Source of the DNA: a virus
Lineage: Duplodnaviria > Heunggongvirae > Uroviricota > Caudoviricetes
DNA: 37,852 nucleotides
Strand: one strand, 5' to 3'
Virus record (IMG/VR): IMGVR_UViG_2531839583_000010
Shown here: positions 1-15,396 of the stretch, piece after piece
How the letters are laid out: each line of letters starts with the position of its first letter
How positions within the stretch are numbered: position 1 is the first letter of the stretch
Made by a program: the position numbers and the translations under genes
The notes under the pieces: model-generated
Told to the model about the DNA's origin: nothing
Databases searched by the model: none
The model's input: the letters and a program-made list of their open reading frames with translations, nothing else

Positions 1-1053
1 TTACGGGGTAATGCCAACCGCTGCCGCCACTTTGTCGCCACTTGGCAGCGTTGCCAGAGGATTGAAACGGAGCGCCGTTTCCAGATGATCCGGTGCCAGA
101 TGTGCGTAACGCATCGTCATTTTTATATCGTGGTGTCCGAGAATTTTTTGTAAGGCCAGAATGTTTCCACCCGACATCATGAAGTGCGCCGCAAACGTAT
201 GGCGCAGAACGTGTGTGAGTTGACCGCGAGGGAGCACGATAGACGTTTTTTCCATCACGGATAAAAATTGAAAATAGCAGTCTGTGAAGAAATTGAACCC
301 ATCAAGCGCCATGATCTCTTCGTAAAGCTCTTTACTGATAGGGATGCTTCTGTTTTTCTTCCCTTTCGTTCTGACAAAGGTAATTCGGTATTTAGTCACC
401 TGTGAACGGGTAAGATTTATTGCTTCTCGCCAGCGTGCGCCTGTGCTTAAGCAGATCTTGACTACCAGTGCCAGAATTGGGTCCTGACGTTTGCAATCAG
501 CCAGCAATTCAACAATCTGTTCATGGGTAAGCCATGCCATCTCTTTTTCTGCGATGGTGAATTTTCGCATGTTCTCCAGTGGGTTCGGATACGACCATTC
601 GCCCAGGCGGGATAGTTCGCTAAAAACACTACTTAGATAGCTTTGCTCCAGGTTAACGGTGACCGGGCTTGCTCCTTTCTTCCATTTTTCGCTGAAGTAG
701 ATCTCTCCTGTCAGGCGTTTATCTCTATAGTGGGCAAACATTTTAGAGGTGAGATCGGTTGCAATGGGATTTCCCAGAGCGTCAACCATCAACAGCAATT
801 TGTCATAGACATGCTGCCCAGCCGTCAGAGATTTACCATGTAGTTTGAACCATAGCTCAACCACGTCTTTCAGTGTTCGACGATCCACTGATTCACCCAG
901 CCAGGGTTTTGCTTCGGTTTCTTCCATCGTGTGACGCTCAAAAGCCAGAGCTTCGCCTTTGGTGGCGAATTGTTTACGCACACGACGTCCACTACGTCCG
1001 GCGGGGTAACATTCGCAAAGCCATTTTCCTGTGGTGAGTTTTCGTACTGCCAT
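1..1053 (-). CDS. int: Tyrosine integrase (P2/186 family)
   Basis: 350-aa ORF; C-terminal region HVLRHTFAAHFMMSGG...HHDIKMTMRYAHL matches the tyrosine recombinase R-H-R-Y catalytic box; sits at the prophage edge. The last ~6 codons lie left of the att core. Confidence 0.9.
   Translation of the reverse strand: MAVRKLTTGKWLCECYPAGRSGRRVRKQFATKGEALAFERHTMEETEAKPWLGESVDRRTLKDVVELWFKLHGKSLTAGQHVYDKLLLMVDALGNPIATDLTSKMFAHYRDKRLTGEIYFSEKWKKGASPVTVNLEQSYLSSVFSELSRLGEWSYPNPLENMRKFTIAEKEMAWLTHEQIVELLADCKRQDPILALVVKICLSTGARWREAINLTRSQVTKYRITFVRTKGKKNRSIPISKELYEEIMALDGFNFFTDCYFQFLSVMEKTSIVLPRGQLTHVLRHTFAAHFMMSGGNILALQKILGHHDIKMTMRYAHLAPDHLETALRFNPLATLPSGDKVAAAVGITP
19..40. repeat. Putative attL core (cgctgccgccaCtttgtcgcca), inside the 3' end of int
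   Basis: 21 of 22 nt identical to 34988-35009, which lies immediately after the ogr stop; seen directly in the sequence. Confidence 0.45.
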
Positions 1054-1131: not shown

Positions 1132-1503
1132 TCATAAGTACCGATATGATTGCGGGGCCGTTATGTTATCACCTAATGAACTTAGATGAAGCGGTTGATC
1201 ATAGATTTTTAAATTGCCAATTTCTATAGCAAAGGCTTTTTCTTTGCTATGAAAATATGAGTCAAAAAATTGTTTGCTGATACCTGCGTATTGGCTTGTT
1301 TTTTCCCATACAATACTTGGCTTGTCTTCTATAACGTCTGCAATGTCAAATTCAGCAACAACTTTACCGACAGGCATTGTTGAATAAATAACCACAGATT
1401 TTACATCCGGGTTTTTGAAAAGACCTTTCCTGAATTCAAACTTCTTTGTCCCATTAAGGATCTTTTCAACAAATTCAGGTTTTATTGACAATAATACTTT
1501 CAT
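1132..1503 (-). CDS. ASCH-domain (PUA-like fold) protein, cargo gene 3 of the cI-int cassette
   Basis: 123 aa; N-terminus LLSIKPEFVEKILNGTKKFEFRK resembles the ASCH signature (LSIkPeya..Il.GkKt.E.R); overlaps the upstream gene by 29 nt. Homology is recalled, not searched. Confidence 0.6.
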   Translation of the reverse strand: MKVLLSIKPEFVEKILNGTKKFEFRKGLFKNPDVKSVVIYSTMPVGKVVAEFDIADVIEDKPSIVWEKTSQYAGISKQFFDSYFHSKEKAFAIEIGNLKIYDQPLHLSSLGDNITAPQSYRYL

Positions 1504-2554
1504 CTACAGCACCAAGTTTAATTATATCGTCAAATTGCTTATCGGTTAATTTAACAACACCCCAACGGTTTTTAGGATTCAAACCAATTTCTTTAATTAG
1601 TTTAGCACGATTTATTCTTTTAGGTAAAGCTAGATTATATGTAAAACTAATAATGTAAGGGTATCTTCTTGTTTGATAAAATTTTTTCAATTCATTTTCA
1701 GAAAATACACTGTATCGTGCACAATATTGTATGAATTCATTTTCATTATGAAAAGAATCAATATATCTAATATCTTCAACTACACATAATGACGTTGCGA
1801 CAGAACGATAGTATGCTCTGTTCTCTTCGTCACTTGTTCTGTAAATAACTAAGATGTCATGTTTTTTTATTTTTTTTACATCATACATTCTACATATATA
1901 TATTTTTCTAATGCTATTAGCATGAGATACATCCGTGATTATATCTGGAGATTCAGTGACGAGTTTTGAATCAGGAAAAAGTTTTGTATGAAATTCAGGG
2001 TGTATTGACAATAGGTATTTATTCTCATTATTTTTATTATTTATATATGGGTAATCAGAAAGTATATCACCCGTGAGGTGATTTCTATTCATCTCTCTTA
2101 CTAAAACATTTTCTATACCATTTGCGGTTTTTTTTGTGCCATGAAGAATGAATCCATAAAGTTTGAATAGTTTTATTAGATATTCATGTTTTTCAAATAC
2201 AGTAACGTAAATATCATTAACTCTTTCTTTTAAAGCATGATCAAATATTTTTTTTAAAAAACGTTGCCCTCGTAATGTTTTTTTTGTATTGAACTTAAAG
2301 GTTCCAATTTTCAAATGTTTATGATTGATAATTGATGGGGTGACATCAGTTATTTTACCGAATTCAATTTTTAAATACATAAAACCATCAATGGTATTAT
2401 CGTCATTATAAAGCACATATGCTTTTTCTTCTGGATTAAGACTTTTTCTGTTGAACCATTCAATAAAACCGTGTTCATAGTCATTCTTTAACGAATCAAA
2501 AAATGTATCGTCAAAATTTACTTGACTGAATGGAATAAGTTTTAAATTTTCCAT
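1475..2554 (-). CDS. Hypothetical two-domain protein; C-terminal half has an ASCH-like motif, N-terminal half has weak GNAT-like features
   Basis: 359-aa ORF in an AT-rich island; C-terminal segment LLSIHPEFHTKLF...ILVIYRTSDEE echoes the neighbouring ASCH start; the N-terminal RGQRFLKKIFDHAL stretch only loosely resembles GNAT motif A. Confidence 0.5.
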   Translation of the reverse strand: MENLKLIPFSQVNFDDTFFDSLKNDYEHGFIEWFNRKSLNPEEKAYVLYNDDNTIDGFMYLKIEFGKITDVTPSIINHKHLKIGTFKFNTKKTLRGQRFLKKIFDHALKERVNDIYVTVFEKHEYLIKLFKLYGFILHGTKKTANGIENVLVREMNRNHLTGDILSDYPYINNKNNENKYLLSIHPEFHTKLFPDSKLVTESPDIITDVSHANSIRKIYICRMYDVKKIKKHDILVIYRTSDEENRAYYRSVATSLCVVEDIRYIDSFHNENEFIQYCARYSVFSENELKKFYQTRRYPYIISFTYNLALPKRINRAKLIKEIGLNPKNRWGVVKLTDKQFDDIIKLGAVDESIIVNKT

Positions 2555-2581: not shown

Positions 2582-3646
2582 TTATTTTCTATAGGTCCAA
2601 AGGTGAATAATTATATATATTACAATAGCTAAAATTGCCCCACCGATATAATATGTGCTTGTCGGTATAAATTTAAGAATAAAAGCAAAGGCAGCACCAT
2701 ATATCAAGTACGCAAAAATTTTACTGAATTTGGTTTTCGTGTTTTTAAACTTCACAACAACAGAGAAGTCATTTAGTGTTGTTTCATTATCATTAACAAT
2801 CTTCCAATGGTAAATCATAGGGTCGTGATCACCAAATGAAATACCTTTTTCGAAATATTTTGTCCATGTTTCAGACTCTAATATTCTACATCCTTTATAA
2901 CTTGAGCCAGATGCTGAACATTCATCAACAATATCTCTTATTATAAACAAATGTATTTTTAAAGGTGTGCAAGCGGCGCTCGCCAGAGTTGTAGCAATTT
3001 CTGAAGGTAGGTTTCTTTGTTCATTGATCCTAAAATCAATAATATCAGAACGCTCAATATTACTTTTGAGAAAGAGATCTTTTGGATAAAATGTTTTTAC
3101 TAAAACACCTATATCTTCATTGTTGAGTTTAACTCGAAATCTTAAATAATGTGGAGCATCCTCTGACGATAGGCAATCTTTTAGCTTGAAAACAATGAAG
3201 GTGCCATTATGTATTTTAGTTACCTTAACCCTACGATCAAGTTCGCCACCACTAAAGGTCAGATTTGTATTAACAACTAAATCACCTTTATTCGCAAGTT
3301 CTAATTTTGAATGTCTGACGTCTACTGTTTTTGTATTAATAAGATATTCATTAAAAACAGCTGTTACGAGATCTCGGCTTGACTCGAGATTTTTACTAAG
3401 ATCAGAAAAAAAACAATTTTCCTTCTCAAATGGTAAAAATATGCATATTGCACCATGATTTGCAATGGTGTCGTCATCAGGTTTTTTAAACGTAATACCA
3501 AAATCTAAATAACAAAATTTATGAGCACTTATATTCCAAAAATTTATGTGTAACTCATTAATAAAATTATTGCGTTCAGGGTTATAGGTCGAACTCGAAT
3601 TGCTCCTATAATCCCTACATCCCCAGATAGCAAAACTTTTTGACAT
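2582..3646 (-). CDS. Hypothetical protein with a large soluble N-domain and two C-terminal transmembrane helices
   Basis: 354-aa ORF; C-terminus IFAYLIYGAAFAFILKFI...YYIGGAILAIVIYIIIHLW has two hydrophobic helices; no recognised catalytic motif. Confidence 0.5.
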   Translation of the reverse strand: MSKSFAIWGCRDYRSNSSSTYNPERNNFINELHINFWNISAHKFCYLDFGITFKKPDDDTIANHGAICIFLPFEKENCFFSDLSKNLESSRDLVTAVFNEYLINTKTVDVRHSKLELANKGDLVVNTNLTFSGGELDRRVKVTKIHNGTFIVFKLKDCLSSEDAPHYLRFRVKLNNEDIGVLVKTFYPKDLFLKSNIERSDIIDFRINEQRNLPSEIATTLASAACTPLKIHLFIIRDIVDECSASGSSYKGCRILESETWTKYFEKGISFGDHDPMIYHWKIVNDNETTLNDFSVVVKFKNTKTKFSKIFAYLIYGAAFAFILKFIPTSTYYIGGAILAIVIYIIIHLWTYRK

Positions 3647-3674
3647 AAATATTTCCTTATATCATAGTAAATTA

Positions 3675-4328
3675 TTATACATCTGATAATACTTTTCGAT
3701 AGCATCTTGCGATGGGTTTTATATCGTCAAGCATACATTCAAAAAATGTTTGACCACTGCTAACTTTTACTCTCCCAACTGGAATTCTAACCAGATCACG
3801 AGAACTTATTTTTCCTTCTATTTCAACAATCCATTTCCCATCAATAATTTCATCAAATTTCATGTCTACCAGATAATTATCTGATAACTCAGAAAATATT
3901 GCGGGGGTAATCATATCCACCGGGAGCAAATCTTTATCAAAAATGTAAGAGGAATCACCTTGTAGCTTGCCATCTACTATTTTGTAATGTGGCAATTTTA
4001 TACCTTCTTTCGTTGCTTTAAGACGAGGAGAACCAACACCAGACACTAACCATTCGAGAGACACTCCCGTTTCTAGAGCGCACTGAATTACCCAATCAGC
4101 TGGAAAAATATCACGCATATAGCGCGTTGCCATGGTGCTCTTAGAAACACCTAAATGATCACAGAGAGCCTGACGGGTACCGAACCCATATGCTTCAACT
4201 AAACGTTCTATAGCTTTCTTACCGCCGCTATTGAAATCCACAAGTCCTCCAAAGAAATCCAAAACTCGTTGACAGATTCCAAAAGCGATCTTAAAGTTGA
4301 ACCAGAAGTGTTCTTTTGGAGCCTTCAC
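3675..4328 (-). CDS. cI: CI-type immunity repressor (phage 186 family, HTH)
   Basis: HTH region ERLVEAYGFGTRQALCDHLGVSKSTMATRY...CALETGVSLEWLVSGVG resembles the 186 CI N-domain; divergent from apl/cII as in 186. The true start may be internal (ORF is about 25 aa longer than expected). Confidence 0.7.
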   Translation of the reverse strand: MKAPKEHFWFNFKIAFGICQRVLDFFGGLVDFNSGGKKAIERLVEAYGFGTRQALCDHLGVSKSTMATRYMRDIFPADWVIQCALETGVSLEWLVSGVGSPRLKATKEGIKLPHYKIVDGKLQGDSSYIFDKDLLPVDMITPAIFSELSDNYLVDMKFDEIIDGKWIVEIEGKISSRDLVRIPVGRVKVSSGQTFFECMLDDIKPIARCYRKVLSDV

Positions 4329-4386
4329 TACTAATCACGACAAACAACGGCTCGCCAAAAGCCATATCTAGAAGGAATATTGCCTT

Positions 4387-4590
4387 ATGACACCTAACAT
4401 TTCAATTACTCTGAATACACCACATGTCACAATCGAACGTTATAGCGAACTGACTGGCCTTGCTATTGATACGATTAACGACATGTTGGCTGATGGCCGA
4501 CTACCTCGTCATCGTCTTCGTAAAGACAAAAAACGTGAAAAGGTAATGATTAACCTGGCTGCTCTGACTGTTGATGCTTTGTCTGTTTAA
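4387..4590 (+). CDS. apl: Apl/Cox-like excisionase-transcriptional regulator
   Basis: 67-aa ORF, first gene of the early rightward operon directly opposite cI; positional and size analogy to 186 Apl / P2 Cox. Confidence 0.55.
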
Positions 4591-4645
4591 TAGACGTCTA
4601 TTTTCGCAATAAGACGCTGAGTTCGATTTTGCGATAAGTTCGGAG

Positions 4646-5164
4646 TTGAAAACCATGTTTGATTACCAAGTTTCCAAACATCCACATTTTGATGAAGCCT
4701 GTCGTGCATTTGCACTGCGCCACAATCTGGTGCAACTGGCAGAACGTGCAGGCATGAATGTGCAGATTCTGCGGAACAAGCTGAACCCAGCTCAGCCTCA
4801 TTTATTAACCGCACCAGAAATCTGGCTGCTTACCGATCTGACTGAAGATTCAACGCTGGTAGATGGTTTTCTGGCACAGATTCATTGTCTGCCATGTGTA
4901 CCGATTAATGAGGTGGCAAAAGAGAAACTGCCACATTACGTCATGAGTGCAACCGCAGAGATCGGGCGTGTTGCTGCAGGTGCGGTGTCTGGCGATGTAA
5001 AAACCTGTGCCGGTCGTCGTGATGCTATCAGCAGCATTAACTCTGTAACACGACTGATGGCGCTGGCGGCTGTTTCATTGCAGGCCCGTTTACAGGCTAA
5101 TCCTGCGATGGCGAGTGCAGTTGATACCGTGACTGGCCTCGGTGCTTCATTTGGTTTGCTGTGA
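4646..5164 (+). CDS. cII: CII-like lysogeny establishment regulator (186 type)
   Basis: 172 aa; [23 protein letters not shown]...[25 protein letters not shown] matches recalled 186 CII. The start may be the ATG at 4655. Confidence 0.75.
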
Positions 5165-5171
5165 GGTGCTT

Positions 5172-5372
5172 ATGCTGACGAAAGAACCATCATTTGCATC
5201 GCTGCTGGTTAAACAAAGCCCGGCAATGCATTACGGTCACGGCTGGATCATGGGGGAGGATGGTAAACGCTGGCATCCGTGCCGTTCACAAGATGAATTG
5301 CTGGCAGAACTATCTACGAAAAAACGGGGGAACAAATGGCTATTGAAGGCGCTGCGGCGACTGTTCCATTAA
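5172..5372 (+). CDS. Hypothetical early protein
   Basis: ORF with GAGGTG Shine-Dalgarno 5 nt upstream of ATG 5172; position equivalent to 186 fil / P2 orf78. Confidence 0.45.
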   Translation: MLTKEPSFASLLVKQSPAMHYGHGWIMGEDGKRWHPCRSQDELLAELSTKKRGNKWLLKALRRLFH

Positions 5373-5677
5373 GCCCCGGTGAACGCCTGAATGGACTTAA
5401 TCACATAGCGGAATTAAGGGCGAAAGTTTTTGGCCTGAATATTGAGTCAGAGCTTGAGCGGTTTATTAAAGATATGCGTGATCCACGGGATATCAATAAT
5501 GAACAAAATAAACGGGCACTAGCTGCCATTTTCTTTATGGCAAAAATTCCAGCTGAACGTCATAGCATCAGCATTAATGAGCTGACCACTGACGAAAAGC
5601 GGGAGTTGATTAAAGCAATGAATCATTTTCGTGCAGTGGTGAGCTTATTTCCCAGACGGCTAACCATGCCGAATTAA
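5336..5677 (+). CDS. Hypothetical early protein
   Basis: 113-aa ORF in the early operon; overlaps the previous gene. Confidence 0.45.
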   Translation: MAIEGAAATVPLSPGERLNGLNHIAELRAKVFGLNIESELERFIKDMRDPRDINNEQNKRALAAIFFMAKIPAERHSISINELTTDEKRELIKAMNHFRAVVSLFPRRLTMPN

Positions 5678-5744
5678 CCAACTAATGAAATTAATGGCGT
5701 AAACCCGCCGGGCATCCCTTTATCTAAATTCAGGAGAATTGATT

Positions 5745-5978
5745 ATGCGTAATATTGAAACCCTCTCGACCAAAACCGGACCGGATGACGCAGGGCTTAA
5801 TATTTTACTGACAGAGGCTCGTCTGGAAGAACGCCGGGCAAGGGCTGAAGCAATGGCAGCTCGCCTTGATAGCCTGGCGTGTCATATCACATCCCGCCAG
5901 CTAACCCACGTCGAAGCGGCAGAACTGCTTCGTGTGACTGCTGAAGCAATCCAGAACGAAGCGCAGGAGATCCACTAA
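5745..5978 (+). CDS. Hypothetical early protein
   Basis: ATG 5745 preceded by AGGAG; its stop overlaps the next start (TAATG). Confidence 0.45.
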   Translation: MRNIETLSTKTGPDDAGLNILLTEARLEERRARAEAMAARLDSLACHITSRQLTHVEAAELLRVTAEAIQNEAQEIH

Positions 5979-6205
5979 TGGCTGATGCAATGGATCTCGT
6001 ACAGCAGCGCGTTGAAGAAGAACGCCAACGCCATATCCGTGCTGCCCGTGCCAAAACGCCGGGCGTGTCCCGCGTGCTTTGCATTGAGTGTGAAGCGCCA
6101 ATTCCGCCAGCACGCCGCCGTGCCATTCCGGGTGTGCAGCTTTGCATTACCTGTCAGGAAATCGCAGAGCTGAAAGGCAAACATTACAACGGAGGTGCTG
6201 TATGA
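5978..6205 (+). CDS. TraR/DksA-family C4 zinc-finger protein
   Basis: 75 aa with CIECEAPIP...CITCQE (C-x2-C...C-x2-C), typical of P2 orf82-like TraR/DksA proteins. Confidence 0.65.
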   Translation: MADAMDLVQQRVEEERQRHIRAARAKTPGVSRVLCIECEAPIPPARRRAIPGVQLCITCQEIAELKGKHYNGGAV

Positions 6206-7020
6206 GCACCATCCTGAAATGGGCGGGAAATAAAACTGCCATAATGTCCGAACTGAAAAAACATCTTCCTGCTGGCCCGCGACTGGTTGAACCTTTCGCG
6301 GGTTCCTGTGCTGTGATGATGGAGACGGATTATCCCAGCTATCTGGTTGCGGATATTAATCCTGATTTAATCAACCTCTATAAAAAGGTTGCCGCTGATT
6401 GTGAATCGTTTATATCTCGCGCCAGAGTTTTATTTGAGATCGCAAACAGGGAGGTGGCTTATTACAACATAAGGCAGGAGTTTAATTACTCAACTGAAAT
6501 TACTGATTTCATGAAAGCGGTATATTTCCTGTATCTCAATCGTCACGGTTACCGTGGTTTATGTCGCTATAACAAGAGCGGGCATTTCAACATTCCCTAC
6601 GGTAATTATAAAAATCCGTATTTCCCTGAAAAAGAAATTCGCGCTTTTGCAGAAAAAGCCCAGCGAGCAACGTTTATCTGCGCCAGCTTTGATGAAACGC
6701 TGGCGATGTTGAAGGCGGGGGATGTGGTGTATTGCGATCCGCCTTATGACGGTACGTTTTCCGGCTATCACACTGATGGTTTCACTGAAGATGACCAGTA
6801 TCACCTGGCATCTGTTCTTGAACATCGATCATCAGAAGGACATGCGGTCATTGTTTCTAACAGTGACACATCCCTGATCCGTTCGCTGTATCGCAATTTT
6901 ACTCACCACTACATCAAGGCAAAACGCAGCATCGGCGTAGCAGCTGGTGAGAGTAAATCTGCAACAGAAATCATCGCTGTTTCCGGGCCACGCTGCTGGG
7001 TGGAATTTGGTGGAATTTGA
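6202..7020 (+). CDS. dam: DNA adenine methyltransferase (Dam-like, D12 class N6-adenine MTase)
   Basis: N-terminus LKWAGNK...[10 protein letters not shown] (AdoMet motif) and catalytic DPPY ([10 protein letters not shown]); GGAGG Shine-Dalgarno before ATG 6202. The longer track ORF from 6142 is rejected. Confidence 0.85.
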
Positions 7021-7065
7021 TCCTTCGCGTGGCGTGGATAGTTCTGCTGTGTACGAGGTGCGTGT

Positions 7066-9480
7066 ATGAGTCATGACGATATGAGCAACTCTAGCGGCTT
7101 TAACGAGGCCGCTACAGCATTTTCATGGAACGGCCCGAAAAAGGCCATTAACCCTTATCTGGACCCGGCGGAAGTTGCGCCGGAGTCTGCACTTTTAAAC
7201 CTGATCACTCTGTACGCTGCCGATAATGAGCAGGAACAGCTGCGCCGCGATGCACTGAGTGAGCAGGTCTGGGAGCGTTATTTCTTTAATGAATCTCGTG
7301 ATCCTGTCCAGCGCGAAATGGAGCAGGATAAGCTCATTAGCCGGGCAAAGCTGGCGCATGAACAGCAGCGTTTTAACCCGGACATGGTCATTCTGGCGGA
7401 CGTCAGCGCCCAGCCCACCCATATTAGCAAGCCGCTGATGCAACGTATCGAATACTTCAGCAGCCTGGGCAGGCCAAAGGCTTATTCCCGCTATTTGCGT
7501 GAGACGATTAAGCCATGTCTGGAGCGACTGGATTGTGTACGTGACAGTCAGCTGTCTGCTTCTTTCCGTTTTATGGCAAGCCATCAAGGGCTGGAGGGCC
7601 TGCTGATCCTGCCTGAAATGAGTCAGGACCAGGTGAAACGCCTGTCCACCCTGGTAGCTGCGCATATGAGCATGTGCCTTGATGCAGCTTGTGGCGATTT
7701 GTATGCCACCGATGACGTTAAGCCAGAAGAAATCCGCAAGACATGGGAAAAGGTGGCGGCGGAAACCCTGCGTCTGGATGTCATCCCACCTGCGTTTGAG
7801 CAACTCCGTCGGAAAAGAAACCGCCGTAAACCCGTACCCTATGAACTCATTCCGGGTTCGCTGGCGCGTATGTTGTGCGCCGACTGGTGGTATCGGAAAT
7901 TATGGAAGATGCGTTGCGAATGGCGGGAAGAGCAGTTGCGTGCTGTCTGCCTGGTCAGCAAAAAAGCATCTCCCTATGTCAGCTATGAAGCCGTGATGCA
8001 TAAACGTGAGCAGCGCCGTAAGTCGCTGGAGTTTTTCCGTTCTCATGAACTGGTGAACGAAGACGGCGACACGCTGGACATGGAGGATGTGGTAAACGCC
8101 AGCAGCAGCAACCCTGCGCATCGCCGCAATGAGATGATGGCCTGTGTTAAAGGTCTGGAGCTTATCGCGGAAATGCGCGGTGACTGCGCCGTTTTCTATA
8201 CTATCACCTGTCCGTCACGTTTCCATTCCACGCTCAACAACGGCAGACCCAACCCGACCTGGACAAATGCGACGGTAAGACAAAGCAGCGATTATCTGGT
8301 CGGCATGTTTGCTGCATTTCGTAAGGCAATGCACAAAACCGGGTTGCGCTGGTATGGCGTGCGGGTGGCTGAGCCGCACCATGACGGTACTGTGCACTGG
8401 CATCTCATGTGCTTCATGCGTAAAAAAGACCGCCGCGCCATCACTGCATTACTGCGTAAGTTTGCCATCCGTGTAGACCGCGAGGAGCTGGGCAACAACA
8501 CGGGGCCACGCTTTAAGTCTGAGCTGATTAACCCGCGCAAAGGAACACCGACAAGCTACATCGCGAAATACATCAGTAAGAACATTGACGGGCGTGGTCT
8601 GGCTGGCGAGATCAGCAAGGAAACGGGTAAATCCCTGCGTGATAACGCCGAATACGTTAATGCCTGGGCGTCTCTGCATCGTGTTCAGCAGTTCCGCTTC
8701 TTTGGTATTCCGGGACGTCAGGCTTACCGTGAACTTCGCTTGCTGGCTGGTCAGGCGGCAAGGCAACAGGGGGACAAAAAAGCAGGTGCGCTGATACTGG
8801 ATGACCCGCGCCTTGATGCCATCCTGGCTGCTGCTGATGCTGGTTGTTTTGCCACCTACATCATGAAGCAGGGCGGCGTACTGGTTCCCCGTAAATATCA
8901 CCTTATCAGAACCGCTTATGAAATCAACGAAGAGCCGACCGCCTATGGCGATCACGGCATTCGTATTTATGGCATCTGGTCACCCATTGCAGAGGGCAAG
9001 ATCTGCACTCATGCAGTGAAGTGGAAAATGGTTCGTAAGGCCGTTGACGTTCAGGAGGCGGTAGCCGACCAGGGCGCTTGCGCCCCTTGGACTCGTGGCA
9101 ATAACTGTCCCCTTGCTGAAAATTTGTACCAACAAGGGAAAGACAAATCAGCTGATGGGGATACCAGAACGGATATCACCCGTATGGATGACAAGGAGTT
9201 GCACGATTACCTGCACAGTATGAACAAAAAAGAACGCCGGGAACTGGCTGCAAGGTTACGCCTGGTGAAACCGAAACGGCGTAGAGACTACAAACAGCGA
9301 ATTACAGACCATCAACGACAGCAGCTCGTCTATGAACTGAAGTCCAGAGGATTTGATGGCAGCGAGAAAGAGGTCGATTTACTCCTTCGCGGCGGCAGTA
9401 TTCCGTCAGGAGCAGGCCTGCGTATCTTCTATCGGAACCAGCGTTTGCAGGAAGATGATAAGTGGCGGGATCTGTATTAA
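7066..9480 (+). CDS. A: Replication initiation protein A (rolling-circle nickase, P2 gpA-like)
   Basis: 804-aa ORF downstream of the early genes, in the position and size of P2 gene A. Confidence 0.8.
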
Positions 9481-9573
9481 TTACGCGGGTTAACAATTCG
9501 TGCTCTTAATAATACCAGGCATATCAGGCTGATGAACGTAAAAAAAACGTTTTACATCAGTAAGATTATTATA

Positions 9574-9593
9574 TACTGTAAATATAAACAGTG
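9574..9593. promoter_or_regulatory. LexA (SOS) box CTGT-N8-ACAG
   Basis: tactgtaaatataaacagtg: CTGT at 9576-9579, 8-nt AT spacer, ACAG at 9588-9591; about 45 nt upstream of ORF 9635. Confidence 0.6.
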
Positions 9594-9634
9594 GTTATGT
9601 GTACAGTATTGCTTGTGGTGTCATAGGAGGAAAA

Positions 9635-9823
9635 ATGCAGGACTATTTTTTGGAGTCTTTGAAGCTCCAGCGCATTGATTTTTTTCTTAAGCTTGTAGCG
9701 GCTAGTGAGTGTAGTGATGAAGAGAAGGGGCTGGCTCTGCAGTGGGTTTCTGAATTGACTGATGAACTCATGGCAAAAATCAGAAGCCACGAATACAACC
9801 GCTCAATGGATGTCATCAGCTGA
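9635..9823 (+). CDS. Hypothetical protein, first ORF of the SOS-controlled tum-like module
   Basis: 62-aa ORF with GGAGG Shine-Dalgarno; directly downstream of the LexA box. Confidence 0.45.
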   Translation: MQDYFLESLKLQRIDFFLKLVAASECSDEEKGLALQWVSELTDELMAKIRSHEYNRSMDVIS

Positions 9824-9833
9824 GGTGACTTTT

Positions 9834-10067
9834 ATGCGCATTGAAATAATGATCGATAAAGAGCAGAAAATTAGCCAGTCTACCCTGGACGCCCTTGAAT
9901 CCGAGCTTTACCGCAATCTGCGCCCCCTGTATCCCAAAACGGTAATTCGTATCCGCAAAGGTAGCTCTAACGGTGTGGAACTGACCGGACTGCAACTGGA
10001 CGAAGAAAGAAAACAAGTGATGAAAATTATGCAGAAGGTGTGGGAAGACGACAGCTGGCTGCATTAA
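9834..10067 (+). CDS. DinI-like protein (Tum C-terminal-domain-like antirepressor module)
   Basis: MRIEIMIDKEQ...LDALESELYRNL...KIMQKVWEDDSW parallels E. coli DinI (MRIEVTIAK...EILQETWESADDW); GAGGTG Shine-Dalgarno upstream. Confidence 0.7.
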   Translation: MRIEIMIDKEQKISQSTLDALESELYRNLRPLYPKTVIRIRKGSSNGVELTGLQLDEERKQVMKIMQKVWEDDSWLH

Positions 10068-10572
10068 GAAACGTTGCTGGCGTCTGAACTTGCTTCTGGC
10101 GTCAGCAAGGTTGAATAACGAGCTGTGCGAGGCGTTAGCCATCTGATCAAAAGACATCAAATATCATATTGTATATCGTGGTCAAACGCTGGAAACAATC
10201 ATTCCCGGTCAGAGGGGCTTCTTTCAATGTCTAAAAGAGTGAGATAGAGGATACAGGATGGGAAGAGCTTATGATGATTGTTCTTGGATTGACTTGGAAT
10301 ATTTGATGTCCATTATCTAATGGACTTGGTCTTGATAGTTATCACGAAAGAGGAAGCCAACGTCATGTATTTGAAGAGTATCTCTTACCTTTTGATTAAT
10401 TATTGTCCAAGTTTTTCAAAAGCTTCTTATCTGGCGGTCGATACATGATTTACTGTTGGATATGGTATTTAAAATTAATCTTTACACTGTGGTATATGCA
10501 GAATAGGATATTATCAATACAATCAAACTGTTTTCATACGGTTGTTAATATTGCAATGTTATAGGTAATGTC

Positions 10573-11691
10573 ATGTATCTTTTCAAGTATTACCGTCCGG
10601 ACTTCTTCTTCGAGAAAGCTATTCGTTATAATGAATTATATTTTTCCGCTCCTGCGCAATTGAATGATCCTAATGATCTCAATATAGATTATCGTTTTGA
10701 TAATAAATTGAAATTATGAGATATTTTATTGCGTTCTCCTTGCGATAAATCCTATAAAAATTTGAGTCACATATTAGATTTGAGTAATTTGAAGATACAT
10801 AAGGGATTGAATCGTATTTTTAGAGGAAAAAAAATAAAAAGTAGCATTGAGTCATTAGATAGCCTGTTTGACTCACACGTTGATGAGATACGTAAGATCA
10901 TAAATGATGGTTTACTACCTATCAATGTGATTAATTCCGCTATTTATGGGAATATTCCTGAACCACGCCAATTTTTGGTCTCACTTTGCGAGAACAGTAT
11001 CAAAGAAAGGTTGTATAGGAAAATAGTTCCTGCAGTATTCAGTGTGTCATTTTCAGCTAATGCGTTAGATCGTATGATGTGGGCGCATTATGCTGCAGGC
11101 TTTAGTGGTTGTGTTGTGATTTATGAAACGCAGGATTTTAATATTAATGGCGTACCACATCCTGGAATGAAGTTAAGAGAAAATTTATTTTCATCAGATA
11201 AAATTAATTTTCCAGTTAAGCCAATAAAATATAGTAATCAAGCTAAAGAGGTTTCACTTCTAGACCCAAGCGCAAATGTTGCAGAGTTATTTTTAACTAA
11301 AAATAGATTTTGGAGATATGAAGCTGAATATCGAATGTTTATTCCAGAGGCAAATGCAGGAATAGGGAGTGAGCGGCATGTTCAAAGACACGTAAATCGA
11401 AATATTGGACATGTTTTTCATCATGATGCTAATGTTGTTAAAGGGATCATTTTTGGTCCTAGAATGTGTGAAATGAAAAAAGAAAGCATATGGAATTGTA
11501 TCAAGTCAAATATGGAGAATTCAAATTCAACAATATGTTATTTTTTTGACTCTGAGTTATCAGCATCAGGAAAGATTACTATTTCAAAAGGGCAACGAGC
11601 GGAAAAAATGAAAAATTTCCCTTTGTTCAGGAACAAGTTAAGTCAGACGGAAATGGCTAAAGTTTTGAAGGAAATTGGCATTACGAACTAA
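10573..11691 (+). pseudogene. DUF2971-like gene interrupted by an in-frame TGA (10717-10719)
   Basis: ATG 10573 encodes YLFKYYRPDFFFEKAIRYNELYFSAPAQLNDPND (DUF2971 N-motif as recalled); a TGA follows; the same frame continues to 11691 and contains MWAHYAAGFSGCVVIYE and RFWRYEAEYR (DUF2971 core motifs). The track ORF 10729-11691 starts at a TTG. Confidence 0.55.
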
Positions 11692-11756
11692 CCTAACAAC
11701 AGTGCATGCCTATGCTGCCTGAATTTGCATGACCGTTTGAGGATCGTTTTTGCTAA

Positions 11757-11781
11757 GGCCCGCCAGAACTGGCGGGCTTTT
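11757..11781 (+). terminator. Rho-independent terminator candidate
   Basis: ggcccgccag-aa-ctggcgggc followed by tttt; GC stem plus T-run downstream of the DUF2971-like gene. Confidence 0.6.
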
Positions 11782-11826
11782 GCGTGGATCAGGCACCTGC
11801 ATGAAAACCACTACACAAAGCGGGCA

Positions 11827-11845
11827 GGCGTGGCGGGGATACGAG
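11827..11845. other. Putative cos (cohesive end) site, ggcgtggcggggatacgag
   Basis: The first 13 nt match the recalled P2/186 cohesive end (GGCG[A/T]GGCGGGGA...); it sits in a short GC-rich island between two AT-rich cargo genes. Assigned from memory of the P2/186 cos sequences. Confidence 0.4.
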
Positions 11846-11978
11846 CGCGCGTTATGACAAATAGATGATTAGCCTGATTTATTTACAGCTGTATAAATGA
11901 TCACCTTGTAATTAGGTAAGTAATGTCTTCTATTATCATTGATTTGATAGGATTAATCTGTTTTTTGAGGATTAGAGG

Positions 11979-14315
11979 ATGATTGAAGAGGTAGTTATTG
12001 ACAAGGTAGGCTCATATAATGGCCCTACGCAGCTTTTACATGGACTTTCTAAATTTAACTATTTATATGGAGCTAATGGTGCAGGTAAAACAACTATAAG
12101 TAAAATTATTAATGACCCTGAACAATATCCAACATGTCCGATTAAATGGAAAAATAATATATCTTTAATAAGCTACGTATATAATAAAGATTTTGTTGAA
12201 AGAAATTTTAGTCAAGATAAAATTAAAGGTGTATTTACCCTTGGTAGCGATCTTAAGGAGGATGAAGAGAAACTAATATCTCTTAAAGAAGAAAAAAATA
12301 AGCTAATGGAATCTATTATAGCAAAGGAAAAGTTAATAGATGGTGGTGATAATGAATTAGGCGTTATTAAAAAAATCGAAGACCATGAAAAATCTTTTAA
12401 AGATTCATGTTGGAAGCAAAAAGTAAAACATGACAATGTGTTCTCAAAGGCTTTTGAGGGATTAAGGAATAGTAGTGAAAAATTTAAAGCCAGAGTGTTG
12501 GCTGAGTATGAAAATAATACATCAGAAGTTTGCTCAATAGCAGAGTTAATTGAGAAAGCAAAAATTGTTTTTTCTACTGAATTGACATCACATGTATCAA
12601 TTACAATTCCATCCTTCAATGGGATAGATGATATTTTGAGTAGGGAAGTTTGGAGTGAGCGTATCCTAGGGAAAAAAGACGTTAGTGTTTCAGACTTAAT
12701 TACAATGCTCAATAACAGTGATTGGGTTAAGGAGGGTTTAACATATTTCAGTAAATCTAATCCCAAGTGCCCATTCTGCCAGCAGGATGTAAATGATAAT
12801 ATATTTGATAATCTTTCATCATATTTTGATAAAACATATGAGTTAAAAAAAAGAGAAATCGATGCATTGGTTTTACAATATGAATATCAACTTAATAATA
12901 TCTTGAAGGCGATAGATGATATAAGGGCGATTAAATCTCCATTCATAAATTATGAAGTGTTTGAGGATAAGGCTAAGATAGTATTATCTGAATTAAACAA
13001 GAATTTTGAATTGGCAAAAAATAAACGCAATTTTTTAAGTGAATCAGTTCATTTTAGTGACTTAAGTGAAGTTGTTGATGATTTTATTTCTTTTTTGAAT
13101 GATTCAAATCTATTGATAGATAATAATAACAAAATACATAGTAATAGAAAGGTAGAGGCTAGTAATCTTTCTAAGCAGATATGGGCATATATCGTAAAGG
13201 TGGAGTTAAAGTCTGAAATAACTTCTTACCGTAGCAAATCTGATAAGTTTAATAGGACGTTACAAGGACTTAAATCTGGGATAGAAGAAGACAAAAAGAA
13301 GTTAATGTTAAATACTTCGGCTATTGAGGCAATTGAGTCTAATAAAACCAGTACTCTTCCAACTATTACAAAAATTAACAAGATTCTGGACTCTTATGGC
13401 TTCAAAAATTTTTACTTAAAACCCTCCGAAGATAAAAAGCATTATATGATAGTGAGAGATAGTGGAGATAATGCTCGTACAACCCTTAGTGAGGGAGAAA
13501 AGACATTTATCACTTTTTTGTACTTTTATAGCCTTGTTAGAGGGAGTGATAATGCATCAGGTGTTTTAGATGATCGTGTTGTAGTATTTGATGATCCAAT
13601 TTCAAGTTTAGATAGTGATATTCTGTTTATTGTAAGTTCGTTGATTAAAGATTTAATGGAGGATGTTCGTAAGGATGAAGGAAATATTAAGCAAATTATA
13701 TTCCTTACTCATAATATTTATTTTCATAAAGAGTTGACTTTTAATACCAAAAGATCCGGTAATCAAGCAATGAAAGAGGAGACTTTTTGGATTGTAAGGA
13801 AAAAAGGGAAGGTTTCATATCTTGAAAAGTGCGAATCAAACCCAATAAAAACGTCTTATGATTTGCTCTGGTGCGAATTGAGAAGAACAGACATTAATAA
13901 TAATACTATACAAAATACAATGCGAAGGATTTTGGAGAATTACTTTAAGATATTAGGTGGGATGGATATTAGGAAGCTTGAGTGTCATTTTTATGGTGAT
14001 GAAAAAATCATATTTAAATCTTTAGTGTCATGGATTAATGATGGTTCCCATTTTGCAGGTGATGATCTTTATATGAATTTAGATACGGAGTCTGTGCAAA
14101 AATATTTAATTGTTTTTCAGAAGATATTTGAATGTAGTGAGCATACTGCCCATTACAAAATGATGATGGGTGAGTTTTATAAACCGTTAAATGAGTCACT
14201 TCATCTACAAGATGAGTTTGATATAGATGATAGTGCGAATGATGAGTATGCTTCGTCAAAAATTGAGATAAAAGATGGAATAAACACATCTCTACATAGC
14301 AACACATATTTGTAA
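11979..14315 (+). CDS. RloC-like ABC/AAA_13-type ATPase with coiled-coil CxxC hook and C-terminal HEPN-like (R-x4-H) domain; candidate anticodon-nuclease-type defense protein
   Basis: Walker A GANGAGKTT (aa 31-39, nt 12069-12095); CPFC (aa 264-267, nt 12768-12779) inside a K/E-rich predicted coiled coil; LSEGEK signature (aa 503-508); Walker B/D-loop VVVFDDPISSLD (aa 534-545); RKLECH (aa 665-670, nt 13971-13988). AT-rich. Confidence 0.6.
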   Translation: MIEEVVIDKVGSYNGPTQLLHGLSKFNYLYGANGAGKTTISKIINDPEQYPTCPIKWKNNISLISYVYNKDFVERNFSQDKIKGVFTLGSDLKEDEEKLISLKEEKNKLMESIIAKEKLIDGGDNELGVIKKIEDHEKSFKDSCWKQKVKHDNVFSKAFEGLRNSSEKFKARVLAEYENNTSEVCSIAELIEKAKIVFSTELTSHVSITIPSFNGIDDILSREVWSERILGKKDVSVSDLITMLNNSDWVKEGLTYFSKSNPKCPFCQQDVNDNIFDNLSSYFDKTYELKKREIDALVLQYEYQLNNILKAIDDIRAIKSPFINYEVFEDKAKIVLSELNKNFELAKNKRNFLSESVHFSDLSEVVDDFISFLNDSNLLIDNNNKIHSNRKVEASNLSKQIWAYIVKVELKSEITSYRSKSDKFNRTLQGLKSGIEEDKKKLMLNTSAIEAIESNKTSTLPTITKINKILDSYGFKNFYLKPSEDKKHYMIVRDSGDNARTTLSEGEKTFITFLYFYSLVRGSDNASGVLDDRVVVFDDPISSLDSDILFIVSSLIKDLMEDVRKDEGNIKQIIFLTHNIYFHKELTFNTKRSGNQAMKEETFWIVRKKGKVSYLEKCESNPIKTSYDLLWCELRRTDINNNTIQNTMRRILENYFKILGGMDIRKLECHFYGDEKIIFKSLVSWINDGSHFAGDDLYMNLDTESVQKYLIVFQKIFECSEHTAHYKMMMGEFYKPLNESLHLQDEFDIDDSANDEYASSKIEIKDGINTSLHSNTYL

Positions 14316-14326
14316 TTTTATTACAA

Positions 14327-14356
14327 TTGCCAGTAGCAACAATACGGTACTGGCAA
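14327..14356. terminator. Hairpin between convergent ATPase gene and Q (ttgccagta-N12-tactggcaa)
   Basis: Perfect 9-bp inverted repeat with a 12-nt loop in the 49-bp gap between convergent genes; AT-rich stem, so strength is uncertain. Confidence 0.35.
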
Positions 14357-14364
14357 CTAATATT

Positions 14365-15396
14365 TTAGTTAAGCTCATATGGAGAAAATTCTATAAGTTT
14401 TTCCCCGAGCCATGCATTAATTTCTCTAAATCGTTTTTGCAAAGGAATTAATTCATTTATCACAAAAACCTTACTAGCCTTCTCCACATCCCCAAACCCC
14501 CCGACATTATTAGGCATAATCCCCATCATTTGCGGTGGAACGCGGTGTGCCGCCATCATGTCATCGCGACTAACATTTTTGATATTCAGAAACTCATCCT
14601 TCGCTGCGACTTCTGATAACGGGATAATCTGAAGCCCGTCCTTTTTGCCGTTAGGTGAGTACATAAACAGGTTGCGGAAGTTGCCCGGCCCTTTGGCGCT
14701 TTTCATCGCATTGCGGAGGTTGTTCACATCCTCCTGGTTTTGCGCGGCATCGGTCATGTACATGATAAAGCCCGCATGACTGCCGTTAATGTAATACTTG
14801 CGACGGAACAGCGTGGCGGACTCGTTGAGCAGGGCTGACGGAATGGCAGAAAGATAACCGGGCAGGCCGTAGATCTCCTGATTAATATCCGGTTCCATCA
14901 GATGAAAAATGCTGCCTTTCGTGAACTGATACGGCTGGGGTGTCATACCGTATTGCACAAACCAGTAGGTATCCAGGTCTAATCCGCGTCGGGTGTATTT
15001 TGCCAGCGCAGGTTCAAGGGCGATCACTTCACCGAAGCGGTTCGTGCGTTTCTCCAGATAGGCGTTGCCAAATACCAGATAGTCCTGCACAAAACGCGAA
15101 AAAGCCTGCTGGCTGAGCAGAGGATGAGGGATATAGGTACTGGTCAGAATGTTGCACTTTACTGCAATCGGGGAACTGTGATGCACGGCAGCGCGGAAGG
15201 TGCGCGCCAGTCCGTCAAAGCTGACGGGCGGCTCATACCAACGGTCCATCTGTACGCATTCCACATAGTCCAGTAATTCTCGGCGGTCCAGAACAGGAAC
15301 GGGATCGCCGAAGCTGAATGCTTCGGCTGAAGTTTGGTTTTTATGCTGGATCTGATTCGTCGCCGCAGTGCGGTTTTTCTTATTCTTTCCCATCAA
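14365..15396 (-). CDS. Q: Portal protein (P2 gpQ-like)
   Basis: 343 aa (P2 Q is 344 aa); adjacent to and co-oriented with the terminase large subunit. Confidence 0.9.
   Translation of the reverse strand: MMGKNKKNRTAATNQIQHKNQTSAEAFSFGDPVPVLDRRELLDYVECVQMDRWYEPPVSFDGLARTFRAAVHHSSPIAVKCNILTSTYIPHPLLSQQAFSRFVQDYLVFGNAYLEKRTNRFGEVIALEPALAKYTRRGLDLDTYWFVQYGMTPQPYQFTKGSIFHLMEPDINQEIYGLPGYLSAIPSALLNESATLFRRKYYINGSHAGFIMYMTDAAQNQEDVNNLRNAMKSAKGPGNFRNLFMYSPNGKKDGLQIIPLSEVAAKDEFLNIKNVSRDDMMAAHRVPPQMMGIMPNNVGGFGDVEKASKVFVINELIPLQKRFREINAWLGEKLIEFSPYELN

Follow-up and report, generated by a model that had tools for sequence, protein, structure and literature searches.

Nearly every (PIN)-GNAT-EVE operon codes for an ASCH protein and often also for an AAA_17 ATPase (Bell et al. 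2020, PMC7641849). Those with ASCH and AAA_17 genes have been predicted to be toxin-antitoxin (TA)-like or virus-host conflict systems, and gammaproteobacterial prophages commonly contain GNAT-EVE fusions (PMC7641849). The PADLOC candidate anti-phage system PDC-M11, made up of M11A and M11B, appears in the literature searched only as a 'phage defense candidate'. Operons of the (PIN)-GNAT-EVE type with an ASCH gene, whether or not an AAA_17 gene is present, are reportedly also credited to Iyer et al. 2013. The window analyzed here, a stretch of 37,852 nucleotides (nt) from a virus of the Caudoviricetes (IMG/VR record IMGVR_UViG_2531839583_000010), corresponds to a 186/P2-like prophage. On its minus strand, at positions 2582-3646, it carries an open reading frame (ORF) of 354 amino acids with an ATG start codon at position 3646, further referred to as gene X. 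A preliminary description of this DNA had presented X as a membrane-anchored candidate effector of the cassette between the repressor gene cI and the integrase gene int. Based on sequence comparison, the locus is a putative three-gene form of PDC-M11, of which the extra gene, X, belongs to a large, undescribed family of predicted membrane proteins.

The assignment of this locus is based on the two genes downstream of X, which match the candidate defense system PDC-M11 in PADLOC and which the preliminary description did not identify as such. The first one (M11A; 1475..2554, minus strand) codes for a 359-amino acid protein with a GNAT acetyltransferase domain and a C-terminal domain of approximately 200 amino acids. 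It matched PADLOC model PDLC04419 over the full model length (E value of 9.6e-134; the M11A-type PADLOC models are PDLC04417-04422) as well as phrog_6345. Its GNAT domain (residues ~1-150) was retrieved by profile matches with PaiA (1tiq; 4.8e-5) and 8osp (0.0088; residues ~4-148), and Acetyltransf_10 was weakly matched by seven of 19 M11A homologues. Proteins built in this way are called 'GNAT-EVE' in the literature. Pfam EVE gave one weak match among these 19 homologues (E value of 0.089), the C-terminal half of M11A had no PDB match by profile search, and a single-sequence AlphaFold2 (AF2) model of the protein was unusable (pLDDT of 45). The second gene (M11B; 1132..1503, minus strand) codes for a 123-amino acid ASCH-domain protein, which matched PADLOC model PDLC04425 (2.2e-49) and Pfam ASCH (2.1e-6) and contains the motif GxKxxExR (G18-R25). 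Its PDB relative (7.8e-9) is the Zymomonas ASCH protein 5guq, which has been reported as a single-stranded RNA ribonuclease (Kim et al. 2017, cited in PMC7641849). By these matches, the downstream pair is a predicted representative of PDC-M11, in agreement with the prophage operons of GNAT-EVE plus ASCH genes (Bell et al. 2020, PMC7641849). Further points in common with the latter operons are a setting in a gammaproteobacterial prophage, an overlap between GNAT and ASCH genes, and, for chromosomal relatives of X, an AAA_17 gene that is often nearby. However, the system as published comprises two genes, or three if AAA_17 is included, and lacks a membrane component, whereas X matches none of its models and is absent from PMC7641849. 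No AAA_17 gene was found in the window, such a gene being present in 10 of the 23 X lineages considered below. The locus is hence placed within PDC-M11 or GNAT-EVE-ASCH through its two downstream genes, with X as an extra gene and not a catalogued component.

That X is a real gene encoding a membrane-anchored protein, as the preliminary description had claimed for this ORF, was confirmed. A full-length orthologue with 93% identity occurs in Escherichia coli prophages, and six other complete E. coli genomes contain it in intact form. Comparison with this orthologue yielded a dN/dS ratio of 0.12, indicating purifying selection. The N-terminus (MS.SFA.WGC) is conserved, so that the start codon of X is correct. 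A word-indexed search retrieved 25 clusters of X homologues in the Enterobacterales (49-92% identity), and full-length homologues with 49-80% identity were found in Escherichia fergusonii, Kluyvera, Salmonella, Scandinavium, Pantoea, Serratia, Brenneria, Yersinia, and Dickeya. An exhaustive phmmer search resulted in 656 clusters at 50% identity (E value of at most 1e-3), 306 of which had an E value of at most 1e-10. Neither X nor 66 diverse relatives of it, which were scanned one by one or as a profile, matched Pfam, PADLOC (cut-off E value of 0.01), PHROG, or NCBIfam; the best PHROG value was 0.21, to a family of unknown function. Similarly, a profile search against the PDB gave no sequence match to X at an E value of up to 1, and a tblastn search against 50,697 records of isolated phages gave none either. 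The X family, with at least 656 clusters, is thus large and unannotated, and the large soluble N-terminal domain was rightly described as being without a recognizable motif. The PHROG and tblastn searches also revealed no homology of X to known lysogeny, structural, or superinfection-exclusion proteins. Fold comparison retrieved the lumenal domain of OST1/ribophorin-I and domain I of the M1 aminopeptidases, with 7-12% identity, Foldseek E values above 1e-3, and TM-scores of 0.2-0.3. These domains are non-catalytic scaffolds from unrelated contexts, so that this resemblance concerns the fold only and gives no evidence of a function shared with X. A relationship of X with the C-terminus of M11A, as an EVE- or PUA-like reader domain, was considered and rejected (hhalign probability of 0.2%).

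The gene neighborhood of X was examined in 23 lineages, each corresponding to one cluster at 90% identity. A GNAT or M11A gene was located immediately downstream of X on the same strand in 22 of them, an M11B-type ASCH gene occurred within 3 kb in 21, and a P-loop kinase-like gene accompanied X in 10. Part of the distant loci was found by means of a degenerate DNA pattern for the X motif DFRxNExRNLP, which gave 19 hits, namely 17 true X loci and two chance hits. As these loci were found through the X motif alone, their neighbors represent an unbiased sample. The order X-M11A-ASCH was kept in every enterobacterial prophage read (Serratia, Dickeya, Yersinia, Brenneria, Raoultella, and Scandinavium; X identity of 49-80%). 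Outside phages, a 26%-identical X (P0025), surrounded by polysaccharide genes and IS66, is followed by a long M11A gene (501 amino acids), presumably of the PIN-GNAT-EVE form, and an ASCH gene. At 25-30% identity, X was retrieved from Rhodospirillales, Nitrosomonas, Azonexus, Methylococcales, Marinobacterium, Pseudomonas, Pseudoalteromonas, Thorsellia, Onishia, Alteromonadaceae, and Vibrio. In these distant loci, a P-loop kinase-like AAA_17 gene and an ASCH gene are divergent from X and a small GNAT gene, the latter two often overlapping by 4 nt. The GNAT partner of X is hence either a short GNAT or a GNAT-EVE or PIN-GNAT-EVE fusion, and the linkage is seen both in prophages and at unrelated chromosomal sites of Gamma-, Beta-, and Alphaproteobacteria. 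The only Chloroflexota locus read (L036), which is cut at its end, displayed no GNAT or ASCH neighbor. In a single case (P0166; 474 amino acids), the N-terminal ~140 residues match the P-loop kinase-like protein of the module (E value of 1e-8) and are followed by an X domain, representing a candidate natural fusion. Altogether, X is very probably functionally linked to the GNAT and ASCH proteins. Instead of being the stand-alone effector that the preliminary description implied, it opens a three-gene unit consisting of X, GNAT (M11A), and ASCH (M11B).

Several of these loci deserve separate mention. In Proteus hauseri (L027; 2277-3271) and Proteus cibi (L028; 2436-3296), the X homologue is split into two ORFs, whereas the small GNAT and ASCH genes remain; in P. 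cibi, the GNAT is shortened too, to 91 amino acids. This suggests that the module is decaying in Proteus, with X as an apparent pseudogene. A metagenome-assembled genome of Vibrio sp. (L035; 1831-6679) contains, in a K139/P2-like prophage region next to a P2-type integrase, an operon of ASCH, kinase-like, X, and small GNAT genes, together with a convergent gene for a full-length M11A-like protein (349 amino acids), so that both forms occur together. A metagenomic locus (L020; 5356-8209) has an X module followed by genes for a 582-amino acid protein with a dCMP/cytidine-deaminase domain and a DUF4238 protein. The DUF4238 domain is that of the Rst_DUF4238 defense system, and this locus is among the few X loci with defense-like neighbors.

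The dependence between X and its partners is one-way, as X is nearly always accompanied by a GNAT partner, whereas the M11A-ASCH pair usually occurs without X. Among 5,426 complete E. coli genomes, the pair was present in 312 and X in seven. Most of these M11A-ASCH copies are located in lambdoid prophages, directly past the repressor gene, at the rexAB position, and without a third gene. In two prophage loci, of E. coli O157:H7 Rafaela_II (L040) and E. coli strain E8 (L041), the pair (~3992-6180) is found past a cI-like repressor gene and upstream of kil, gam, bet, and exo. Among 80 viral loci retrieved from IMG/VR through M11A, all with an ASCH gene downstream, X was lacking in 70. In 47 of the 80, the gene directly upstream of M11A codes for a cI/LexA-like repressor. 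In the other loci, this slot is occupied by X (10 loci), a 260-amino acid HEPN-like protein (nine), the "octameric membrane protein" 8xMP of Pfam (seven), coiled-coil proteins with approximately two transmembrane (TM) helices (two; L061 and L076), small lipoproteins (two), a BRCT-like protein (one), or nothing (two). The HEPN-like protein displays an Rx4H motif (ERNKVIH) and weak PADLOC matches with DUF3644 and Csx1, and its gene touches or overlaps the start of M11A. It replaces X in sister 186-like prophages, such as that of E. coli WP5-W18-ESBL-11 (L002; 6554-7336) and those of L051-L054 and L056-L060. Homology between X and this alternative third protein was ruled out by comparison. The 8xMP protein (PF24838; 2.1e-25) has 194-202 amino acids and is encoded 9-10 nt from the start of M11A (L065-L068, L073, L074, and L081; ~3382-3990). 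With HEPN-like and membrane proteins, the contents of the slot look like the assortment expected of interchangeable effectors.

The filling of the slot between repressor gene and M11A by unrelated genes in different prophages might also be expected if X were a stand-alone, single-gene membrane protein for abortive infection or superinfection exclusion, located next to PDC-M11 by chance in a hotspot. The completeness of M11A-ASCH without X in most genomes and the presence of a Shine-Dalgarno-like sequence of its own (AAGGAA; 3653..3658, minus strand), read 6 nt before the start codon of X, would fit such an autonomous gene. This explanation is nevertheless very unlikely, as the GNAT gene follows X in all lineages except one, including non-phage loci with 25-30% identity and overlaps of 4 nt, as well as loci found independently of their neighbors. 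Moreover, a candidate kinase-X fusion exists, and known Sie, Imm, and Abi proteins displayed no homology to X.

The protein encoded by X is predicted to consist of a cytoplasmic, beta-rich domain (residues 1-302; 2741..3646, minus strand) and a C-terminal hydrophobic helical hairpin (residues 307-353; 2588..2728, minus strand), with TM helices at residues ~309-327 and ~332-351. The Kyte-Doolittle hydropathy over 19 residues reached maxima of 1.87 (residues 310-328) and 2.04 (residues 333-351), the highest mean elsewhere being 1.36 (residues 217-236), and AF2 placed helices at residues 307-325 and 331-353. According to a crude Hessa-type insertion sum, helix 2 is clearly membrane-spanning (+0.3) and helix 1 is marginal (+2.7). 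Lysine and arginine residues number five before helix 1, one in the loop, and two at the C-terminal end, a pattern that fits a hairpin with both termini inside and the large domain in the cytoplasm. Furthermore, of 147 family representatives, 144 have a hydrophobic C-terminal anchor past a conserved HWK motif, with one helix only in some subfamilies. Hydropathy, AF2, charge count, and this family-wide anchor agree on the two C-terminal TM helices that the preliminary description had predicted, with the reservation that applies to helix 1.

Across 66 relatives of X with approximately 25% identity, 13 residues of X are invariant (H33, N35, G50, P72, F98, N99, Y167, R169, R171, R211, R254, E257, and W261), nine of which are polar or charged, and further positions are nearly invariant. 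The conserved motifs are HxNxW, SAVFNE, YxRFR, DFRxNExRNLP, and YHWK. Many conserved residues alternate along beta-strands of the AF2 model and would accordingly face one side of a sheet, as judged from this alternation. A phospholipase D (PLD)-like HxK motif in YHWK was considered and rejected, as its distance to Asp does not fit and is not conserved, and as the fold is beta-rich. Set against the conserved cytoplasmic domain, the variability of the TM segments would suit a tether for a ligand-binding or enzymatic domain no less than a pore.

The prominence of the cytoplasmic domain bears on the possibility that X, tethered to the membrane, regulates GNAT or is its partner or substrate rather than being an effector. 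It could act by antitoxin-like sequestration of GNAT at the membrane until triggered, or as a sensor of envelope events such as DNA injection, with GNAT as a toxic effector of the TacT/AtaT type. GNAT toxins acetylate aminoacyl-tRNA, as cited in PMC7641849. The type II TA systems with such toxins (TacAT, AtaRT, ItaRT, and KacAT) likewise have a GNAT gene immediately downstream of, and overlapping with, the partner gene, and the order of X upstream and GNAT downstream with a 4-nt overlap mirrors these antitoxin-toxin operons. A regulator would also suit a cytoplasmic domain that is far more conserved than the TM segments and a number of TM helices that varies. However, the partner in those systems is a small DNA-binding antitoxin of the ribbon-helix-helix (RHH)/DUF1778 type, whereas here a 354-amino acid membrane protein is combined with a constant ASCH partner. 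As M11A persists without X in most prophages, X is not needed for neutralization. In addition, a domain of 300 amino acids with this set of invariant, mostly polar or charged residues resembles a ligand-binding or catalytic module more than a typical antitoxin, and the HEPN-like alternatives in the slot resemble effectors. A regulatory role of this kind is considered unlikely.

In the prophage, the genes around X are arranged in a tight order on the same strand, namely, from 5' to 3', cI, X, GNAT (M11A), ASCH (M11B), and int, corresponding by ascending position to a minus-strand block of int, the 123-amino acid ORF, the 359-amino acid ORF, X, and cI. The 186-type cI repressor gene (3675..4328, minus strand; Pfam Phage_CI_repr, 5.5e-30, and Phage_CI_C, 2.8e-29) lies directly upstream of X, which starts 28 nt beyond the cI stop codon (3677-3675). 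M11A starts 27 nt past the stop codon of X, preceded by a Shine-Dalgarno sequence (AGGGGG), and its end overlaps with the start of M11B by 29 nt. The P2/186-type tyrosine integrase gene int (1..1053, minus strand; Pfam Int_N and Phage_integrase) is the final gene of this block. Past cI, the rightward early genes cII, fil, dam, and gpA are located on the plus strand. No terminator-like site was found between cI and int on the minus strand, and X was rightly taken to be the first gene past cI, with the same orientation and tight gaps. Promoter-like sites in the cassette were no more frequent than in shuffled sequence, so that no internal promoter can be claimed. X thus seems positioned for co-transcription with cI in lysogens, its expression together with cI being inferred from this layout.

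The three ORFs between cI and int have a G+C content of 27-34%, compared with ~48-53% for int and gpA. According to the RefSeq context of strains C2 and A30, the insertion site of the prophage in E. coli adjoins rcdA/ybjJ. A cI-int hotspot has been described in K139-like phages (Rousset 2022, PMC9122126), and 8% of the P2 defense systems are located between the integrase and primase genes (PMC13586616). The site is a low-GC cargo region within a known P2-family defense hotspot. Phage GNAT-EVE proteins have also been suggested to counteract host restriction or to be toxic to the host (Bell et al., PMC7641849), and the cassette could accordingly serve the prophage's own interest against host or rival defenses, with X as an accessory. 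Besides this published suggestion, the carriage of the module by temperate phages and its co-transcription with cI, as deduced from the layout, would agree with such a role. However, genes expressed from the lysogenic transcript would more readily protect the lysogen than act in counter-defense during the lytic phase, and X modules occur outside phages too, which makes this explanation extremely improbable.

Two groups of described systems resemble the arrangement found here. Firstly, lambda RexA/RexB and, by prediction, the present genes share co-transcription with the cI repressor gene in lysogens and include an inner-membrane protein, X taking a role that would be RexB-like. In addition, M11A-ASCH occupies the exact rexAB position in lambdoid E. 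coli prophages. However, there is no similarity in sequence or fold, and GNAT and ASCH are unrelated to RexA. RexB is a polytopic channel with four TM helices and without a large soluble domain, whereas X combines a cytoplasmic domain of 300 amino acids with an anchor of one or two helices. Secondly, the effectors CBASS Cap15, 2TM-SAVED, Pycsar PycTM, and those of the SLATT type combine, like X, a soluble beta-rich or ligand-binding domain with approximately two poorly conserved TM helices. They are likewise encoded beside a potential signal-making enzyme, and the effector slot alternatively holds a nuclease-type effector, which would be the HEPN-like protein here. In contrast with these effectors, X has its TM helices at the C-terminus, a cyclase or nucleotidyltransferase is lacking, and no homology was detected. 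More generally, X displayed no homology to known TM effectors (RexB, Cap15, PycTM, SLATT, AbiZ, and others) in Pfam, PADLOC, or PHROG, and no significant fold match with them. A signalling role for GNAT would be pure inference.

Weighing these data, the best explanation, to which about an even chance is given, is that of X as an optional arm of the GNAT/ASCH module, targeted to the membrane and serving for output or sensing. The module itself is somewhat more probably anti-phage than not. X would act as an optional accessory arm of PDC-M11, with expression alongside cI in lysogens. The cytoplasmic domain of X might bind a ligand or substrate tied to an acetyl mark that is written by GNAT and read or erased by the ASCH protein, and this mark could sit on a nucleotide, an RNA, or an aminoacyl-tRNA. 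X would then couple the state of the mark to the inner membrane. The likeliest mode would be that the TM hairpin causes membrane damage or growth arrest once a superinfecting phage is sensed, resulting in abortive infection or exclusion, by analogy with RexB. A second possibility is that X localizes or sequesters the module at the membrane. The effector-like look of the slot, the defense hotspot, and the RexB-like arrangement taken together make a membrane-targeted output a fitting role. As to the abortive-infection-type effector of the preliminary description, its architecture, its hotspot site, and the assortment of slot genes speak in its favor, whereas its independence has to be given up, since X is part of a GNAT/ASCH unit. 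That X is specifically a membrane-damaging effector is possible but doubtful.

Several points weigh against a membrane-targeted defense arm. AF2 confidence is low over residues 240-280 of X, which include several invariant residues. The TM segments are poorly conserved in sequence, they vary in number (one or two), and helix 1 is marginally hydrophobic. No structural homologue of X gives a functional clue, and no functional study of PDC-M11, GNAT-EVE/ASCH, or X was found in the literature searched. Of the 312 E. coli genomes that contain the M11A-ASCH pair, 305 keep it without X, so that X is dispensable for the core, and the variable slot could simply gather unrelated single-gene cargo. As X would be made constitutively in lysogens, it cannot be toxic by default. 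Finally, the chromosomal X modules are flanked by housekeeping genes and not by obvious defense islands, making a non-defense role possible. A role as tether, sensor, or regulator is hence a serious rival to the pore model, as is a non-defense role of the chromosomal module.

The latter role would imply that X-GNAT-ASCH, with or without the kinase, serves metabolism or the stress response by acting on nucleosides, nucleotides, or RNA in acetylated form and is not an immune system, the prophage copy being a fitness 'moron'. In such a module, GNAT would write the acetyl group, ASCH would be an amidohydrolase or ribonuclease, the nucleoside monophosphate (NMP)-kinase-like protein would phosphorylate, and X would be a membrane-bound enzyme or sensor. 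The location of chromosomal copies among housekeeping genes (proS, the gene for glutamate dehydrogenase, that for a sulfate permease, lepA, metK, and similar ones) would be in line with this function, and the kinase-like proteins weakly resemble adenylate and (d)CMP kinases. Furthermore, the relatives of ASCH include N4-acetylcytidine amidohydrolases, namely YqfB and, reportedly, EOLA1 (bioRxiv 10.64898/2026.08.01.741249), and the invariant Arg, His, and aromatic residues of X would suit nucleotide binding. Yet the distribution across phyla is patchy, X is pseudogenized in Proteus, and related modules recur in prophage defense hotspots and next to repressor genes at the rexAB position. In addition, the core figures as a defense or conflict candidate both in PADLOC and in Bell et al. 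As a whole, this metabolic explanation is quite unlikely. Acetylation chemistry could also underlie immunity, X then being a new class of membrane-anchored receptor-effector that reads a small acetylated nucleotide or nucleoside. GNAT would make this signal upon sensing phage nucleic acid, the NMP-kinase-like protein would phosphorylate or recycle it, ASCH would erase it in the manner of an N4-acetylcytidine amidohydrolase, and the domain of X lined with Arg, His, and aromatic residues would convert it into membrane collapse. Such an acetylation-based second-messenger immunity, unrelated to cyclic-nucleotide signalling, is speculative and highly improbable.

PDC-M11 is common in enterobacterial prophages, often at the rexAB position. 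The X family supplies a third component for defense-system models, and its invariant residues represent a set of mutation targets. Near-isogenic prophages with X, with the HEPN-like gene, or with an empty slot offer a natural genetic handle. If X is an output arm, the module would be experimentally tractable, as membrane damage is readily scored. Otherwise, the conserved four-gene chromosomal module (X-GNAT/ASCH-kinase) would point to an unexplored acetylation-linked membrane pathway.

Apart from the X locus, the window contains a second low-GC island (0.30-0.37; 10729-14315, plus strand) at the classical P2 defense hotspot between gpA and gpQ. It codes for a 320-amino acid protein (DUF2971 in RefSeq) and a 778-amino acid P-loop ATPase with the Walker A motif GANGAGKTT ('AAA family ATPase' in RefSeq), neither of which had a PDB sequence relative. 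The full pair was found in only one of the 5,426 complete E. coli genomes, several others having just the ATPase. The prophage of E. coli strain C2 (NZ_CP010117.1; L001/L122) is 99.9% identical to the window over the int-cI region. In this strain, the dam methylase gene and gpA are annotated as frameshifted, and the gpA-gpQ hotspot contains different cargo, a 'GTP pyrophosphokinase' (compared with window positions 6142-14400), so that strain C2 is not the source of the window. The difference in cargo indicates that hotspot cargo has been swapped between otherwise near-identical prophages.

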